Source: an uncultured Actinomycetes bacterium (lineage in GTDB: Bacteria; Actinomycetota; Thermoleophilia; Gaiellales; Gaiellaceae). Taken from it: a stretch of 64,000 nucleotides of DNA. This document shows positions 1 to 52,819 of the stretch, in pieces. Positions within the stretch are counted from its first letter, which is position 1. Each line of letters opens with the position of its first letter. Both the position numbers and the translations under genes were made by a program. Under the pieces are notes generated by a model. That model did no database searches, was not told where the DNA came from, and saw only the letters and a list, made by a program, of their open reading frames with translations. Where the stretch lies: positions 403,745 to 467,744 of the forward strand of contig CAVSTY010000003.1 of the NCBI GenBank assembly GCA_963731015.1, given 5' to 3'.

Positions 1-76
1 CAGCGATCGCAGGACGCCGGAGTGATCCTCGTGCTGCTCGGCATCGTCCTGATCACAGCGGGGAGCTAGACGTGGG

Positions 77-394
77 TCACCCGCCGAGCGTGTGCCGCAG
101 CTCGCGCACCGCGTCGGGCACGAGCCGGTAGTACGCCCACGTGCCGCGGCGAGACGCTTCGACGAGCCCGGCGTCACGTAACACTCTCAGGTGGTGGGAG
201 ATCGTGGGCTGCGAAAGCTCGAATGCCGCGTTGAGGTCGCACACGCAGCACTCCTCGGTCGAGGCGAGCCGGTTGACGATCGCGACGCGGGTCGGGTCGG
301 AAAGCGCGCGGAAGCGCGCCGCAAGCGTCTCGCTCGCCGCCGGCTCGAGGGGCTCGGTCGCAGGGCCGCAGCAGAGGACGGGCAGAGTCTTCAT
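77..394 (-). CDS. ArsR/SmtB-family metalloregulatory repressor
   Basis: 105-aa ORF. It carries the winged-helix motif SQPTISHHLRVLRDAGLV and the alpha3 metal site ECCVCDL. An extra N-terminal Cys pair (VLCCGP) resembles CadC-type sensors. Confidence 0.9.
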   Translation of the reverse strand: MKTLPVLCCGPATEPLEPAASETLAARFRALSDPTRVAIVNRLASTEECCVCDLNAAFELSQPTISHHLRVLRDAGLVEASRRGTWAYYRLVPDAVRELRHTLGG

Positions 395-431
395 CGATCT
401 TGGTCAATATACTGTATCGACATCGATCGAT
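393..431. promoter_or_regulatory. Candidate ArsR operator / divergent promoter region
   Basis: AT-rich imperfect 19-nt palindrome GTCAATATACTGTATCGAC (403..421), flanked by ATCGAT at 393..398 and ATCGATCGAT at 422..431. It lies between the arsR-like start and the mini-ORF. Confidence 0.35.
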
Positions 432-444
432 GAAAGGAGAGGCG

Positions 445-498
445 ATGAAGCGCACCGACTGTTGCGACTGCTGCGGCTGCGGTACCGGCTGCTGCTGA
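445..498 (+). CDS. 17-aa cysteine-rich peptide MKRTDCCDCCGCGTGCC (candidate mini-metallothionein-like peptide)
   Basis: ATG 445 to TGA 496-498. AAAGGAGAGG lies at 433..442, with GGAG 5 nt before the ATG. 15 of 17 codons end in G/C, like genuine genes here. A hairpin lies 10 nt downstream. The ORF is below the length cutoff of the ORF track. Confidence 0.45.
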   Translation: MKRTDCCDCCGCGTGCC

Positions 499-507
499 GC
501 ACCACAT

Positions 508-533
508 GCCGGCGGGGCGTACGACCCGCCGGC
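508..533 (+). terminator. Stem-loop after the mini-ORF
   Basis: Perfect 9-bp stem GCCGGCGGG / CCCGCCGGC with an 8-nt loop, followed by GCCTTTG (weak U tract). Confidence 0.4.
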
Positions 534-736
534 GCCTTTGTGTCCGACCCCGCGAGTAACTTCCATCGTATAAAGACCAATCTCGTCGGCGTGCTCCGCG
601 ACGTGCCGCTGACGACGCTCGCCTTCGCGATCGCGCTCGGTCTGTCCCTGATGGCTGATCGAGCTCGGGACGGTTCTCCTGATCGCACTGCTCGTGCGGC
701 GGCTCTCGTCGCACGCTGATATCCCGGCCGACTAGC

Positions 737-1660
737 TCAGACGTTGAAGCGGACGTTGAGGACGTCGCCGTCCTCGACGACGTAGGTCTTGCCTTCGAGC
801 CGCTGCTTGCCGGCCCGCGCAGCCTCCGCGTGACCGCCCGCCGCGACGAGATCGTCCCAGCGCACGACCTCGCACCGGATGAAGCCGCGGGCGATGTCGG
901 TGTGGATGGTCTCCGCGGCGTCGAGCGCGGTCCGGCCGCGCCGAAGCGTCCAGGCCCGCGTCTCCTTCTCGCCCGCGGTGAAGAAGGTGATGAGGTCGAG
1001 CGTCTCCGCGAGCCGGCGTACGACCTCGCCGAGCGCAGACTCGCCGGCGCCGCGGAACTCCGCCGCCTCCTCGGGCGACAGCTCCGAGAGCTCGGCTTCG
1101 AGCTGGAGGTCGATCCCGTCGCCTCCGTTGACAAGCTCGAGCAATGGCTTCGTCGTCAGCGGATCGAGCTCGGGCGGAAGCTCGTCCTCCCACTCGGCCA
1201 GCGCCCGGCCGGCGTCGAGATGGGCGAGAAGCCGCTCGAGGTCGGCCGCCTCCGCCTTGAGCCGCGCGTCGCCCGACTTCGCCTGCTTGCCGACGCGTTC
1301 GAGACGCCGCTCGACGTGGTCTCGGTCCGCCACCAGCAGCTCAAGCTTCAGCGTCTCGAGGTCGTCGGCGGGAACTCGCGTGCCTGAGAAGCCGTCGAGC
1401 ACCACGAGCAGCGCGTCGACCTGCCGGAGGTTGCCGAGCAGCTGAGGCCCCGTCCCGGGAATGTCGACGACGCGTACGGCCGCCGGCGTGACCTTTCGCG
1501 CCCCCACGGTCGCAGCGAGCTGCTCCAGCCGCTCGTCCGGAATCTGCGCCATCCCGACGTGCTCCTTGCCGGAGCCGTGCGTCTCCGCGCGCGTCAGCGC
1601 ACGAAACAGCGTCGTCTTACCCGAGCTCGGCAGCCCGACGATCCCGACCTCCAGCGCCAC
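737..1660 (-). CDS. ychF: YchF-type GTPase/ATPase (shortened form)
   Basis: P-loop GLPSSGKTTLF at the N-terminus and a TGS-like C-terminus ending EGKTYVVEDGDVLNVRFNV. It is 307 aa versus ~363 in E. coli. Confidence 0.85.
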   Translation of the reverse strand: MALEVGIVGLPSSGKTTLFRALTRAETHGSGKEHVGMAQIPDERLEQLAATVGARKVTPAAVRVVDIPGTGPQLLGNLRQVDALLVVLDGFSGTRVPADDLETLKLELLVADRDHVERRLERVGKQAKSGDARLKAEAADLERLLAHLDAGRALAEWEDELPPELDPLTTKPLLELVNGGDGIDLQLEAELSELSPEEAAEFRGAGESALGEVVRRLAETLDLITFFTAGEKETRAWTLRRGRTALDAAETIHTDIARGFIRCEVVRWDDLVAAGGHAEAARAGKQRLEGKTYVVEDGDVLNVRFNV

Positions 1661-2972: not shown

Positions 2973-3662
2973 ATGCGTGCCTTCGCCCTCGCCCTGGTCG
3001 TGACGGCCGTGCTCGTCGCCGGCTGCGGGAGCTCCAGCAAGGCGGCGAAGCCGAACAACGAGGCGTCGAAGCCGGCCGACCAGGTCTTAGCGGACGCGAA
3101 GGCAGCCGCGACGAGCGCGAGCTCCGCGCATGTCTCGGGGAAGCTGGTCTCGAACGGCACCGCCATCACGCTCGACCTCTCCATGGCGCGCGACAAGGGG
3201 GCGAAGGGCTCGGTGTCGATCAACGGGCTCGGGTTCGACCTGGTCAAGATCGGCGACACCGCGTACATCAAGGGCAGCGACGCCTTCTATCAGCATTTCG
3301 CCGGCCCCGCCGTCGCGCAGCTCATCCACGGCAAGTGGATCAAGGCGCCGACCACCAGCAAGCAGTTCCGTTCGTTCGCGGCGCTCGCGAGCGTCTCCGG
3401 GCTCTTCGCCGAGATCGGTGCGAACCACGGCAAGCTCGTCAACGACGGCAAGACGACCTACAAGGGCCAGCCGGTCGTCGCCATCCGGGACCTCTCGGAC
3501 GACAGCAAGCTCTATGTCGCCGCGACTGGCAAGCCGTACCCCGTGGCGATCGTCGGCGGCCGGAAGAACCAGTCCGGCACCGTCACGTTCAGCGACTGGA
3601 ACCAGCCCGTGTCGCTGTCGGCGCCGAGCGGCGCCCTCGACGTCTCGCAGTTCCTCGGCTAG
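2973..3662 (+). CDS. Secreted lipoprotein, possibly LolA/LppX-like fold
   Basis: The ATG at 2973 gives MRAFALALVVTAVLVAGCGSS, a signal peptide plus lipobox. The upstream part of ORF 2463..3662 is antisense to mce. Confidence 0.7.
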   Translation: MRAFALALVVTAVLVAGCGSSSKAAKPNNEASKPADQVLADAKAAATSASSAHVSGKLVSNGTAITLDLSMARDKGAKGSVSINGLGFDLVKIGDTAYIKGSDAFYQHFAGPAVAQLIHGKWIKAPTTSKQFRSFAALASVSGLFAEIGANHGKLVNDGKTTYKGQPVVAIRDLSDDSKLYVAATGKPYPVAIVGGRKNQSGTVTFSDWNQPVSLSAPSGALDVSQFLG

Positions 3663-5203
3663 GCGGAACTAGCAGGCACTTCGCCAGGCTCGCTCGCGAC
3701 CACGCGCGGCACACCGACGGTCTCGGAGGCGCTCGACTCCGCCTCGACGTCCTCGACGAGCGCGTGCAGCTCGTCGCGGACGAGCGTCTCCTTCTCGAGG
3801 AGCGCGGCCGCGATCCGGTCGAGCGGAGCCCGGTGCTTACGCAACAGCCGCACGGCCACCTCATAGGCTCCGTCCGTGAGACGCGACTGCTCCTCGTCGC
3901 GCAGGCGCTTCGTGGACTCCGAAAGGGCGTAGTTGTCGGCCCGCATCGTGCGGGAGGTGACCGTGTCGGACATGCCCCACTCGAACACCATCGAGCGCGC
4001 GATCTCCGTCACCTTCTCGAGGTCGTTGGCGGCGCCGTTCGTGACGCGGCCGAAGACGACCTCCTCGGCGGCCCGGCCGGCCAACGCGACGATCATCCCG
4101 TCGACGAGCTCCTCCTTCGTGTGGAGGTAACGGTCCTCCTCCGGCAGGTAGTAGGCGTAGCCGAGCGCATTTCCGCGAGAGACGATGGTCACCTTCTGGA
4201 GCTCCATCGCCGAGCCCATCAGGTGCCCCATGAGCGCGTGACCGCCCTCGTGGTAGGCGAGGATACGGCGCTCCTTGTCGGTCAGCACCTTGCGCTGCTG
4301 CAGGCCGGCGACGACACGCTCGAGCGCCCAGTCGAAGTCGGCCTGGGCGATCGAGACGTCGCTGCGCCGCCCCGCCTTGATCGCCGCCTCGTTGCAGATG
4401 TTCGCGAGCTCGGCTCCGGTCAGGCCCGAGGTCTGCCGCGCGACGACACCGAGATCAACGTCGTCGAGGTTGAGCGGCTTGCCGCGGGTGTGGACGCGGA
4501 GAATGGCCTCGCGGCCGGCGAGATCGGGAGGAGGCACGAGCAGCTGGCGGTCGAAACGTCCGGGCCGCAGCAGGGCCTGGTCGAGATCCTGGATCCGGTT
4601 CGAGGCGCCCATCACGACGACCTGCTCCGCACCTTCGAAGCCGTCGAGTTCGACGAGGAGCTGGTTGAGCGTCTGATCCTGCTCGCGGTTGAAACCATGC
4701 CCGGAGCGCTGCGCGCCGACGGCATCGAGCTCGTCGATGAAGATGATCGCGGGCGCGTTCTTCCGCGCTTCGATGAAGAGCTTGCGAATGCGAGCCGCGC
4801 CGAGGCCTGCGAACATTTCGACGAACGACGAGGCCGAGGCGCTGTAGAAGTTCGCGCCCGACTCGCACGCGACGGCCTTCGCGAGGAGCGTCTTCCCGGT
4901 CCCCGGCGGGCCGTAGAGGAGAAGGCCCTTCGGCACCTTCGCGCCGAGTCGCTGGAAGCGCTTGGGGTCCCGCATGAAGTCGACGACCTCCATGAGCTCG
5001 CCCCGCACCTCCTCGACTCCGGCGACGTCGTCCCAGCCGACCTGCGACCTCGTGCCCTTGGCCATGGTCGCCGGCGACGTGCGCGGCATCATCCCGACCG
5101 TCTTCCAGAGCACCCAGGCCATGAAGGCGACGAGCAGGAAGAACGCGAGCGGCAGCCACGTCGTGGCGAAGTCCGCCGCAGAGTGCAACCAGTTCCCCAC
5201 CAT
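3659..5203 (-). CDS. ftsH: FtsH-family AAA+ zinc metalloprotease, single-TM short N-terminus
   Basis: Walker A GPPGTGKT, Walker B IIFIDELD and zinc site HEGGH. There is only one N-terminal hydrophobic helix. Confidence 0.9.
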   Translation of the reverse strand: MVGNWLHSAADFATTWLPLAFFLLVAFMAWVLWKTVGMMPRTSPATMAKGTRSQVGWDDVAGVEEVRGELMEVVDFMRDPKRFQRLGAKVPKGLLLYGPPGTGKTLLAKAVACESGANFYSASASSFVEMFAGLGAARIRKLFIEARKNAPAIIFIDELDAVGAQRSGHGFNREQDQTLNQLLVELDGFEGAEQVVVMGASNRIQDLDQALLRPGRFDRQLLVPPPDLAGREAILRVHTRGKPLNLDDVDLGVVARQTSGLTGAELANICNEAAIKAGRRSDVSIAQADFDWALERVVAGLQQRKVLTDKERRILAYHEGGHALMGHLMGSAMELQKVTIVSRGNALGYAYYLPEEDRYLHTKEELVDGMIVALAGRAAEEVVFGRVTNGAANDLEKVTEIARSMVFEWGMSDTVTSRTMRADNYALSESTKRLRDEEQSRLTDGAYEVAVRLLRKHRAPLDRIAAALLEKETLVRDELHALVEDVEAESSASETVGVPRVVASEPGEVPASSA

Positions 5204-33054: not shown

Positions 33055-33128
<74 letters not shown>

Positions 33129-52746: not shown

Positions 52747-52819
52747 TGGCGAGGGCCGGACTCGAACCGGCGACACCCCGGTTTTCAGCCGAGTGCTCTA
52801 CCAGCTGAGCTACCTCGCC
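52747..52819 (-). tRNA. tRNA-Phe (anticodon GAA)
   Basis: The reverse complement folds as GGCGAGG...CTGAAAA...TTCGAGT...CCTCGCC-A. Confidence 0.9.

Follow-up and report, generated by a model that had tools for sequence, protein, structure and literature searches.

The first few hundred bases of a 64,000-nucleotide (nt) stretch of DNA from an uncultured member of the Gaiellaceae (contig CAVSTY010000003.1; the whole stretch is called the window here) carry a very cysteine-rich open reading frame (ORF) of 17 codons at positions 445..498 of the forward strand, divergent from a gene for an ArsR/SmtB-family metalloregulator (arsR, 77..394, reverse strand). Comparison with related loci identifies this mini-ORF as a genuine protein-coding gene which is kept at the protein level and was missed by annotation; that 445..498 is translated and under purifying selection we regard as highly probable. 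As to function, the peptide is probably an ArsR-derepressed binder of arsenite, As(III), or of another thiophilic metal or metalloid, comparable to the metallothioneins and phytochelatins.

The mini-ORF ends with a TGA stop codon (496–498) and its product, MKRTDCCDCCGCGTGCC, is an acidic peptide of 17 residues. The coordinates and translation given in the original prediction were correct when re-read, and a recount agrees that 15 of the 17 codons end in G or C, but the peptide contains seven Cys and not eight as had been reported. The strong Shine–Dalgarno (SD) sequence noted at the same time is AAAGGAGAGG at 433–442, 2 nt 5′ of the ATG at 445. No other ORF of 8–60 codons on either strand of the window has four or more Cys and a Cys content of 20% or above. 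A second ATG at 430, which had been put forward as an in-frame start adding five residues, is not the start codon because just 9 of 25 relatives have it in frame; it belongs to a conserved string of operator and SD sequence, TCGATGAAAGGAGG. A TTG start at 400 was also considered and was dropped, the frame not being kept in relatives.

Related loci were collected with the ArsR protein alone as the anchor, giving 80 species-representative genomes, of which 30 are of the Gaiellaceae type with ArsR identities of 64–94%; in 29 of these Gaiellaceae loci the sequence upstream of arsR is present and could be assessed. A Cys-rich mini-ORF is found divergent from arsR, 44–85 nt upstream of it, in 26 of the 29, and in a 27th locus (L003) it lies 2.2 kb from arsR, displaced by an insertion sequence (IS) element inserted in the second of the two operator dyads described below. 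The two loci that lack it have arsM at the site (L013) or reach the end of the contig 412 nt upstream (L012). Loss of the frame or of the Cys pattern in relatives that keep arsR had been named in the original prediction as the outcome that would speak against a gene; overall, 27 of the 29 species keep the ORF.

The peptides themselves diverge widely (MRRCCEDCCGGTGCC, MAECDCPPDCCPAGCC, MRACDCDCCGPDCDCTDCDC and MFANGSCCDGGDCCDGDDCC are examples). Those of the Gaiellaceae are 13–21 residues long, differing by whole codons, with 5–9 Cys in each, whilst the wider family spans 13–22 residues, nearly all of them Cys, Asp/Glu, Gly and Pro, and usually ends in [G/D]CC. This C-terminal motif stands directly before the stop codon in 26 of the 29 mini-ORFs that are anchored by arsR. 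In the 29 corresponding peptides Cys makes up 38%, Gly 16% and Asp 15% of the composition and Leu, Ile, His and Tyr are absent; among the 492 residues of the mini-peptides there are 3 Trp, 1 Phe and 1 Val. All 29 mini-ORFs are preceded by an SD sequence, either GAAAGGAG(G), GAAGGGAGG or a near variant of the GAAAGGAGG type, which ends 2–9 nt (mostly 5–7) before the start codon. The start is ATG in 27, GTG in one and TTG in one, and the stop is TGA in 17, TAG in 11 and TAA in one.

The pattern of substitution is that of a coding sequence under constraint. Between the window and its relative L002 there are four synonymous and no non-synonymous changes in the mini-ORF, and four independent close pairs, when pooled, give 14 synonymous changes at ~36 sites against 10 non-synonymous changes at ~153 sites; that is, the proportion of synonymous sites changed (pS) greatly exceeds that of non-synonymous sites (pN). 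When ORFs were required to have five or more Cys and a Cys content of 30% or above, both strands of 915 kb of locus sequence contained 28 of them, with 26 at the arsR-divergent site, one the displaced copy in L003 and 2 belonging to the background. It could be argued that there is no gene here and that the ORF is either the decaying Cys-rich 5′ part of an arsM gene or a chance opening in GC-rich (CTG/GCT/TGC)n repeats, perhaps transcribed as a small RNA. Descent from arsM is conceivable in that the N-terminal loop of ArsM in L013, NAGSCCGDDCCGS (SCCGDDCCG), resembles mini-peptides such as that of L025, ANGSCCDGGDCC, and Rfam has no relevant match at the site (its sole hit there is a chance one to Giardia U2, E 0.33). 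We consider this explanation highly improbable, since the frame, the SD sequence, the start, the position of the stop and the Cys codons, each of which is one step from TGA, are kept down to an ArsR identity of 64% and in unrelated GC backgrounds, the insertions and deletions are all of whole codons, pS is far above pN and the background is only about 2 per 915 kb.

Two loci merit separate description. The IS element of L003 occupies roughly 735–2965 in locus coordinates, between arsR and the mini-ORF and inside dyad 2. It has an ORF for a zinc-ribbon transposase of 310 residues, IS1595-like by eye, terminal inverted repeats beginning GGGAAGTATCCCTTGA and a duplicated target site of 8 bp (ACGTCGAT). 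Beyond it the mini-ORF, MKRGDCCDCCGCGTGCC, is intact despite its uncoupling from arsR. In L148 (metagenome contig Ga0164301_10003606) the YchF protein is 92% identical to that of the window and the ArsR only 69.5%, and the module of arsR and mini-ORF may have been exchanged there by recombination independently of its flanks.

Searches of Pfam and NCBIfam gave no match at E ≤ 10 (E ≤ 1 in one Pfam run) for the 22- and 32-residue forms of the window ORF, and none for six mini-ORF relatives of 20–22 residues. An exact look-up in ~15 billion predicted proteins, which takes sequences of at least 20 residues and so excludes the 17-residue form, was made with ten forms of 20–34 residues, including the N-terminally extended forms from the window, and all were absent; gene finders do not call ORFs of this size. 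A full-text search of the literature found no account of such a peptide, most papers in subscription journals being outside its coverage, so that a prior description is possible.

The 50-nt region between the two genes is one large 20-5-20 inverted repeat (390–409 and 415–434). The palindromes that had been remarked upon between the genes are real, and take the form of this repeat and of two dyads of the type ATYGA-N6-TCRAT. Dyad 1 (ATCGA-TCTTGG-TCAAT, 393..408) overlaps the arsR start codon (CAT, 392–394) and the upstream part of the mini-ORF promoter; dyad 2 (ATCGA-CATCGA-TCGAT, 416..431) abuts the mini-ORF SD sequence. These are the only two sites of this type in the 64-kb window, where 0.18 are expected by chance, and none of 100 shuffles reached two. 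Nearly all related loci have the dyad upstream of arsR, also where the partner gene is arsM, arsC or one for an FAD oxidoreductase, and the direct succession of TCGAT and GAAAGGAGG is kept in relatives. An alignment of 27 intergenic regions shows that TCAATATA(G/C)T is also kept. In the window the candidate −10 box reads TATACT (408..413, forward strand) and in most relatives TATAGT. A sigma-70 consensus scan of window positions 1–1000 gave no full −35/−10 promoter, and it is from the conservation that we infer 408..413 to be the −10 of the mini-ORF promoter. Both dyads would be bound by ArsR. The arsR gene itself has no SD sequence, and −10-like boxes (TATATT and TACAGT) lie 11–16 nt before its ATG (394–416, minus strand). 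This suggests that its mRNA is leaderless or has a very short leader, unlike that of the mini-ORF with its very strong SD sequence.

The regulator is a protein of 105 residues, assigned to the ArsR/SmtB family by Pfam (HTH_5, 1.4e-19) and by NCBIfam (HTH_metalloreg, 108.7 bits against a cutoff of 55), in confirmation of the sensor noted originally, with its N-terminal CC and its ECCVCDL motif. The cysteines in question are Cys8-Cys9 and those of the motif in α3, and no orthologue departs from the N-terminal CC or the CVC. Against NCBIfam ArsR_Rv2640c_fam the score is 82.7 bits, under the cutoff of 155. The best solved structure is 6J0E, the As(III) repressor CgArsR of Corynebacterium glutamicum (E 3.9e-14); phmmer aligns PVLCCGPATEPL of the window protein to PTECCTLATGPL of 6J0E, placing PVLCC over PTECC. 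The CadC structures 1U2W and 3F72 are also among the PDB matches, the α3N site of CadC being a Cd/Pb/Zn site. With CgArsR the window protein shares the winged-helix domain and the N-terminal CC, which aligns to Cys15/Cys16, the vicinal pair that serves as As(III) ligands in the type 3 site amongst the ArsR site types described (PMC11868830). It differs in also carrying a CVC of the R773 type, and the third ligand of CgArsR, Cys55 from the other subunit, has no clear equivalent: the CCVC falls close to the place where the GGCGP of CgArsR aligns without quite coinciding with it.

As in CgArsR and other ars operons, arsC, arsM and MIP channel genes are partners in relatives of the window locus. 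An arsC-like gene of the low-molecular-weight protein tyrosine phosphatase type follows arsR directly in L002, L008, L014, L015, L016, L023 and L027, and L034 has both arsC and a MIP channel gene with arsR. In L013 arsM (NF008823, 294 bits, cutoff 263; L013:2179–2952, reverse strand) stands exactly at the position of the mini-ORF, with the synteny, the operator dyads and the SD sequence around it unchanged. In the ArsR tree this locus falls inside the clade that carries the mini-ORF. The likeness of the ArsM loop to several of the mini-peptides is a lead, pointing to either common descent or a shared ligand; as a sign that the mini-ORF descends from the 5′ end of arsM it is suggestive, being a likeness of motifs in low-complexity sequence. 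The ArsRs of the sister clade, from other Actinomycetota, have the same dyad operator and are paired with arsM, ArsI/CadI or FAD oxidoreductase genes. One of these sister-clade loci, L037 (Demequinaceae), has a mini-ORF of its own, MCEDNGCCTPGCC, with an SD sequence and a terminator, amid arsR, arsC, an arsR-arsC fusion and a MIP channel gene. In L025 a HoxN/NixA/NicT Ni/Co transporter gene (TIGR00802, 361 bits; 3454–4551) lies just downstream of arsR, which hints that the ligand range of the regulator perhaps extends beyond arsenic. The predicted regulon context is arsenic, marked by arsC, arsM, a MIP channel and a sensor resembling CgArsR, rather than the zinc or cadmium of an SmtB-type system.

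An association with ArsR also emerges from a scan that contained no information about it. Metagenome DNA was matched to a pattern consisting of an SD sequence, ATG, 8–18 codons and Gly-Cys-Cys-stop, and at least 120 loci matched. Among the matches listed there are 23 in-frame Cys-rich mini-ORFs, and an ArsR homologue lies on the same stretch as 22 of these 23 against 1 of the 97 loci with the pattern only (Fisher p = 8e-22), the latter holding six times more DNA than the mini-ORF loci; many of the positive loci are related Gaiellaceae, and both the counts and the test overstate their independence. The contigs with mini-ORFs among the matches listed have GC contents of 46–71%, and their gene arrangements vary. 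In L109 (70% GC) the order is arsR, mini-ORF (MTDRYSCGCGCGCGCC) and arsC, and the stop codon of the mini-ORF abuts the arsC start (TAGATG). In L142 (52% GC) the mini-ORF (MELDVVCDETCCSGGCCGGGCC) comes third, after arsR and arsM (314 bits), whilst in L176 (46% GC) it (MDKSQLICCEDGCCGGGGGCC) is convergent with an ArsR of the CCCE type. A gene for a 140-residue ArsR precedes the mini-ORF (MSPCCPGPCCPGDGCC) in L189, L200 and L131 (55–57% GC), and in L094 (67% GC) the mini-ORF (MRACCDEGCCRDGCC) stands between arsR and an arsC-like gene. Finally, in L107 (contig LKGT01010104.1, 65% GC) an SD-led mini-ORF near 3131–3190 (MCPLCPYCPDDGCC) follows the gene for a metal sensor of the MerR family (MerR/CueR/CadR). 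The link indicated by these loci is to thiol-based metal(loid) sensors, mostly of ars systems, and it is not confined to a single family or a single subtype of ArsR. Regulons for thiophilic metals may more generally include Cys-rich micro-ORFs as an accessory.

The mini-peptides are low in mass, rich in Cys and nearly devoid of aromatic and hydrophobic side chains, as metallothioneins and phytochelatins typically are. The metallothionein-like role first suggested survives as the best reading of the peptide, though in an arsenic and not a Zn/Cd context. The sequence of events that we propose, comprising repression by ArsR at the dyads, induction by arsenite and binding of metal(loid) by the peptide, is inferred from these comparisons. 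When no inducer is present, one or more ArsR dimers would occupy both ATYGA-N6-TCRAT dyads and repress both divergent promoters, the occupied sites extending over the start codon of arsR, the −10 region and the bases at which transcription of the mini-gene begins. Once the N-terminal CC and the α3 CVC of the sensor had bound As(III) or some other thiophilic metal(loid), ArsR would leave the DNA. This would release a short monocistronic mRNA, with a leader of ~25 nt bearing the strong SD sequence, the 54-nt ORF and a terminator hairpin, which should be translated efficiently. The thiolates of the peptide would then bind the inducer; because As(III) takes three thiolates, a peptide with seven Cys would hold about two As(III). 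The bound metalloid would be sequestered or handed to other ars functions and, as the peptide lowers the free inducer, a negative feedback loop would be closed.

Several considerations weigh against this assignment. The assignment of function rests on comparative genomics, and a free 17-mer with seven thiols might be short-lived in the cell through oxidation or degradation. A search of the 64-kb window for arsC, arsM and MIP genes gave only generic methyltransferase similarity; the lineage of the window has lost arsC, and the peptide would be the sole effector there. The arsC-like genes of the relatives match arsenate reductases best, but with 52–124 bits against NCBIfam cutoffs of 157–215. 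The four-Cys set of the regulator (N-terminal CC plus CVC) also resembles the α3N site of CadC and the inducer could be a metal, and the mini-ORF of L107 lies behind a sensor of the MerR family and not behind ArsR.

The last two points belong to a reading in which the gene and its control by ArsR are the same but the ligand is a soft metal (Cd, Pb, Zn, Cu(I) or Hg), the peptide being a true mini-metallothionein in the SmtB–SmtA sense. The likeness of the invariant CC and CVC to CadC, with 1U2W and 3F72 among the structural matches, can be put on its side, as can the pairing of one sister-clade ArsR with a gene of the ArsI/CadI family, the Ni/Co transporter gene after arsR in L025, and L107 with its MerR/CueR/CadR-family sensor, to which L031 was added as a further hint. 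Seven Cys, moreover, suffice for about 6 Cu(I) in a fungal metallothionein (PMC13107397). Nevertheless, the partner genes that recur are arsC-like, arsM and MIP and not those for exporters of the CDF or P-type ATPase kinds, arsM takes the place of the mini-ORF at the same operator and SD sequence in L013, the regulator is closest among solved structures to an As(III) sensor, and the peptide has no His. On balance we consider a soft-metal ligand unlikely.

A smaller chance still attaches to the peptide being mainly regulatory, that is, a buffer of the inducer or an anti-repressor by which the response of ArsR is adjusted, for example through competition for As(III) or through mixed thiolate complexes at the CC site. 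It forms a tight two-gene module with arsR, the lineage of the window has no other linked effector, and whenever a gene repressed by ArsR has a Cys-rich product, that product is bound to affect the free inducer in return. A purely regulatory role is less obvious, however, where the mini-ORF occurs in larger operons after arsM or before arsC, or once convergent with arsR, and the very strong SD sequence suggests production in bulk.

The metal(loid)-binding role is to be set also against two proposals made with the original prediction, those of a Cys-rich leader peptide and of a precursor of a modified natural product, and for these the region downstream is informative. The mini-ORF is followed by an intrinsic-terminator-like hairpin (507..543, forward strand) with a stem of 508–516 and 525–533, an 8-nt loop, GCGTACGA, and the tail CCTTTGTGT. 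The perfect 9-bp hairpin that had been noted at 508..533 is confirmed; its stem is of GC pairs and begins 9 nt past the stop codon. It was found to be terminator-like in a scan and is the dominant feature of the centroid fold, standing out alone from a region that is otherwise unremarkable in its RNA folding (z = −1.35). In 11 close relatives the hairpin is nearly invariant, with one compensatory change of C–G to U–A, and in distant relatives other GC-rich hairpins that are equally strong take the same place wherever room allows. Beyond it lies ychF, for a ribosome-binding ATPase/GTPase (737..1660, reverse strand; Pfam YchF-GTPase_C, 3.1e-33), which is convergent and bounds the transcription unit of the mini-ORF. 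At least 18 species keep the order arsR, mini-ORF, ychF and sigma factor. In 14 species the stop codons of the mini-ORF and the convergent ychF are 0–70 nt apart, and the two stops overlap in L014, L018 and L023. Exceptions are L109, in which arsC follows the mini-ORF, and L034, in which a PPOX-family gene does so.

As a cysteine-sensing leader peptide or attenuator, the mini-ORF would control a downstream gene by stalling of ribosomes at its Cys codons. There is a precedent in the mycobacterial polycysteine short ORFs, which lack a leader, stand first in operons for cysteine metabolism and work by ribosome stalling (10.1101/834739). They are likewise unannotated, Cys-rich short ORFs of Actinomycetota, and in L109 the junction of TAG and ATG would permit translational coupling to arsC. 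The mini-ORF differs from them in that it has a conserved strong SD sequence and is thus not leaderless, is monocistronic, with a terminator directly after it, and is tied to arsR, with no cysteine-metabolism genes adjoining. Because ychF converges on it within 0–70 nt in 14 species, there is no downstream gene to attenuate and a leader peptide is improbable; purifying selection and the retention of the C-terminal [G/D]CC, which a stalling tract does not need, argue in the same direction. The synteny thus disfavours the proposal, to which we give very little credence.

The second proposal, of a precursor of a modified or exported natural product, whether a ribosomally synthesised and post-translationally modified peptide (RiPP) or a thiol-rich metallophore, has in its favour that the peptide is short and Cys-rich and that RiPP precursors often escape annotation. 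With only 13–22 residues in total, the family shows no organisation into leader and core, no modifying enzyme, protease or exporter is present in the conserved neighbourhood (arsR, ychF and sigma factor), and across varied contexts the sole common partner is a metal(loid) sensor. It too is disfavoured and must be rated as most unlikely.

Returning to the reading as a metal(loid) binder, the closest parallel in layout is smtB–smtA of Synechococcus, where a thiol-based ArsR/SmtB repressor is likewise divergent from a small Cys-rich product (SmtA, the Pfam family Metallothio_Pro). The original prediction had drawn this comparison and the arrangement bears it out, with arsR at 77–394 (reverse), the ORF at 445–498 (forward) and conserved dyads between. 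Both systems have a common operator–promoter region with inverted repeats and, on a layout which here is read from sequence, the logic of a sensor plus a sink with built-in feedback. SmtA is a protein of 56 residues with a zinc-finger-like fold and a Zn4Cys9His2 cluster. In contrast to SmtA and BmtA, the mini-peptide has 17 residues and 7 Cys, His is absent from the 29 arsR-anchored peptides, and there is no similarity in sequence or by hidden Markov models; an SmtA-family homologue it is not, in so far as the forms tested (20–32 residues) match no Pfam or NCBIfam family. The regulator, too, resembles CgArsR rather than SmtB, and the gene neighbourhood is one of arsenic and not of zinc.

Closer in size are the family-1 metallothioneins of fungi (Neurospora crassa and Agaricus bisporus, and that of Heliscus lugdunensis), which are likewise gene-encoded and very short, with 7–8 Cys and no aromatic residues. 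They have 24–26 residues and are to our knowledge the smallest metallothioneins known, the mini-peptide being shorter still. They differ in being eukaryotic, with C-x-C motifs and induction by Cu or Cd, whereas the mini-family is bacterial and linked to ars, with vicinal CC and acidic residues. The alternation of acidic residues and Cys in MRAACDCDCDCCKGGC and MLRCDCDCDCDCCGSGCC recalls the phytochelatins and synthetic (Glu-Cys)nGly peptides, which act as thiol sinks for As(III) and Cd. Natural phytochelatins, however, are made enzymatically from glutathione and are gamma-linked; the mini-peptide would be ribosomal, alpha-linked and under transcriptional control by a metal(loid) sensor.

Within ars systems, vicinal Cys pairs are As(III) ligands in ArsD, and such pairs are found also in the N-terminal loop of ArsM, which looks like the mini-peptides in L013 and whose gene is in one operon with the mini-ORF in L142. 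ArsD is a folded, thioredoxin-like protein of ~120 residues which docks on ArsA, and ArsM is an enzyme, whilst the mini-peptide is without a fold or domain and no ArsA is nearby. We know of no ars gene that encodes a Cys-rich peptide of 13–22 residues, and the literature search brought none to light. The layout is smtB–smtA-like, yet the peptide is outside SmtA and the other described families, and the pair is best described as a predicted sensor-controlled, Cys-rich sink.

A more specific idea, which we put forward tentatively and to which we give a fair but clearly less than even chance, is that the mini-ORF is an unrecognised and widespread part of the ars regulon, encoding a ribosomal phytochelatin-like micro-peptide that is a dedicated carrier of As(III) or thiol donor. 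In bacteria without glutathione such a peptide would pass arsenite on to ArsM, efflux systems or the redox chemistry linked to ArsC, and it may have originated in the Cys-rich N-terminal loop of ArsM. If so, the ars genes would gain a new member, and no family of gene-encoded metal(loid)-binding peptides now known would be shorter; it would be present in several phyla and invisible to gene callers. Should the peptide bind arsenite or soft metals at all, the range of gene-encoded metallothionein-like peptides would extend down to 13–22 residues, under the fungal minimum of ~24–26, the well-studied ars regulon would gain an unannotated member, and a sensor with a 17-codon sink would make a complete resistance or buffering module. 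The mini-ORF appears in any case to be a clean example of a functional gene that escapes annotation pipelines. Since Gaiellaceae are abundant in soil, the peptide could affect arsenic speciation and retention there. The peptides and the pairs of ArsR and operator may also provide parts for arsenic biosensors and bioaccumulation strains, and a natural counterpart of the synthetic phytochelatins.

Some further features of the locus were noted. The terminator hairpin (508–533, and the same site in L002–L011), including its loop, is conserved more strongly in 11 species than the adjacent coding sequence, a constraint that would seem to be beyond the apparent needs of a simple terminator. It probably works in both directions, because ychF converges on it. 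Between the hairpin and ychF the window has ~200 nt extra, outside the system, which contain the remnant of a pseudogene for a small membrane protein (541..735, forward strand). The intact protein of 108 residues is found only in L006 and has no NCBIfam match; by tblastn it matches window 570–653 with 54% identity (E 2e-4). In the window its Met1 codon has become ATA and the remainder is deleted or frameshifted, and the copy in L007 is degraded also. On the other side, at window 1–68, lies the 3′ end of a membrane-protein gene convergent with arsR, the product of which ends in GVILVLLGIVLITAGS; a homologue of 278 residues in L004 has no NCBIfam match. The only Rfam matches above the gathering score in the 64 kb are two tRNA genes, at 33055–33128 on the forward and 52747–52819 on the reverse strand.

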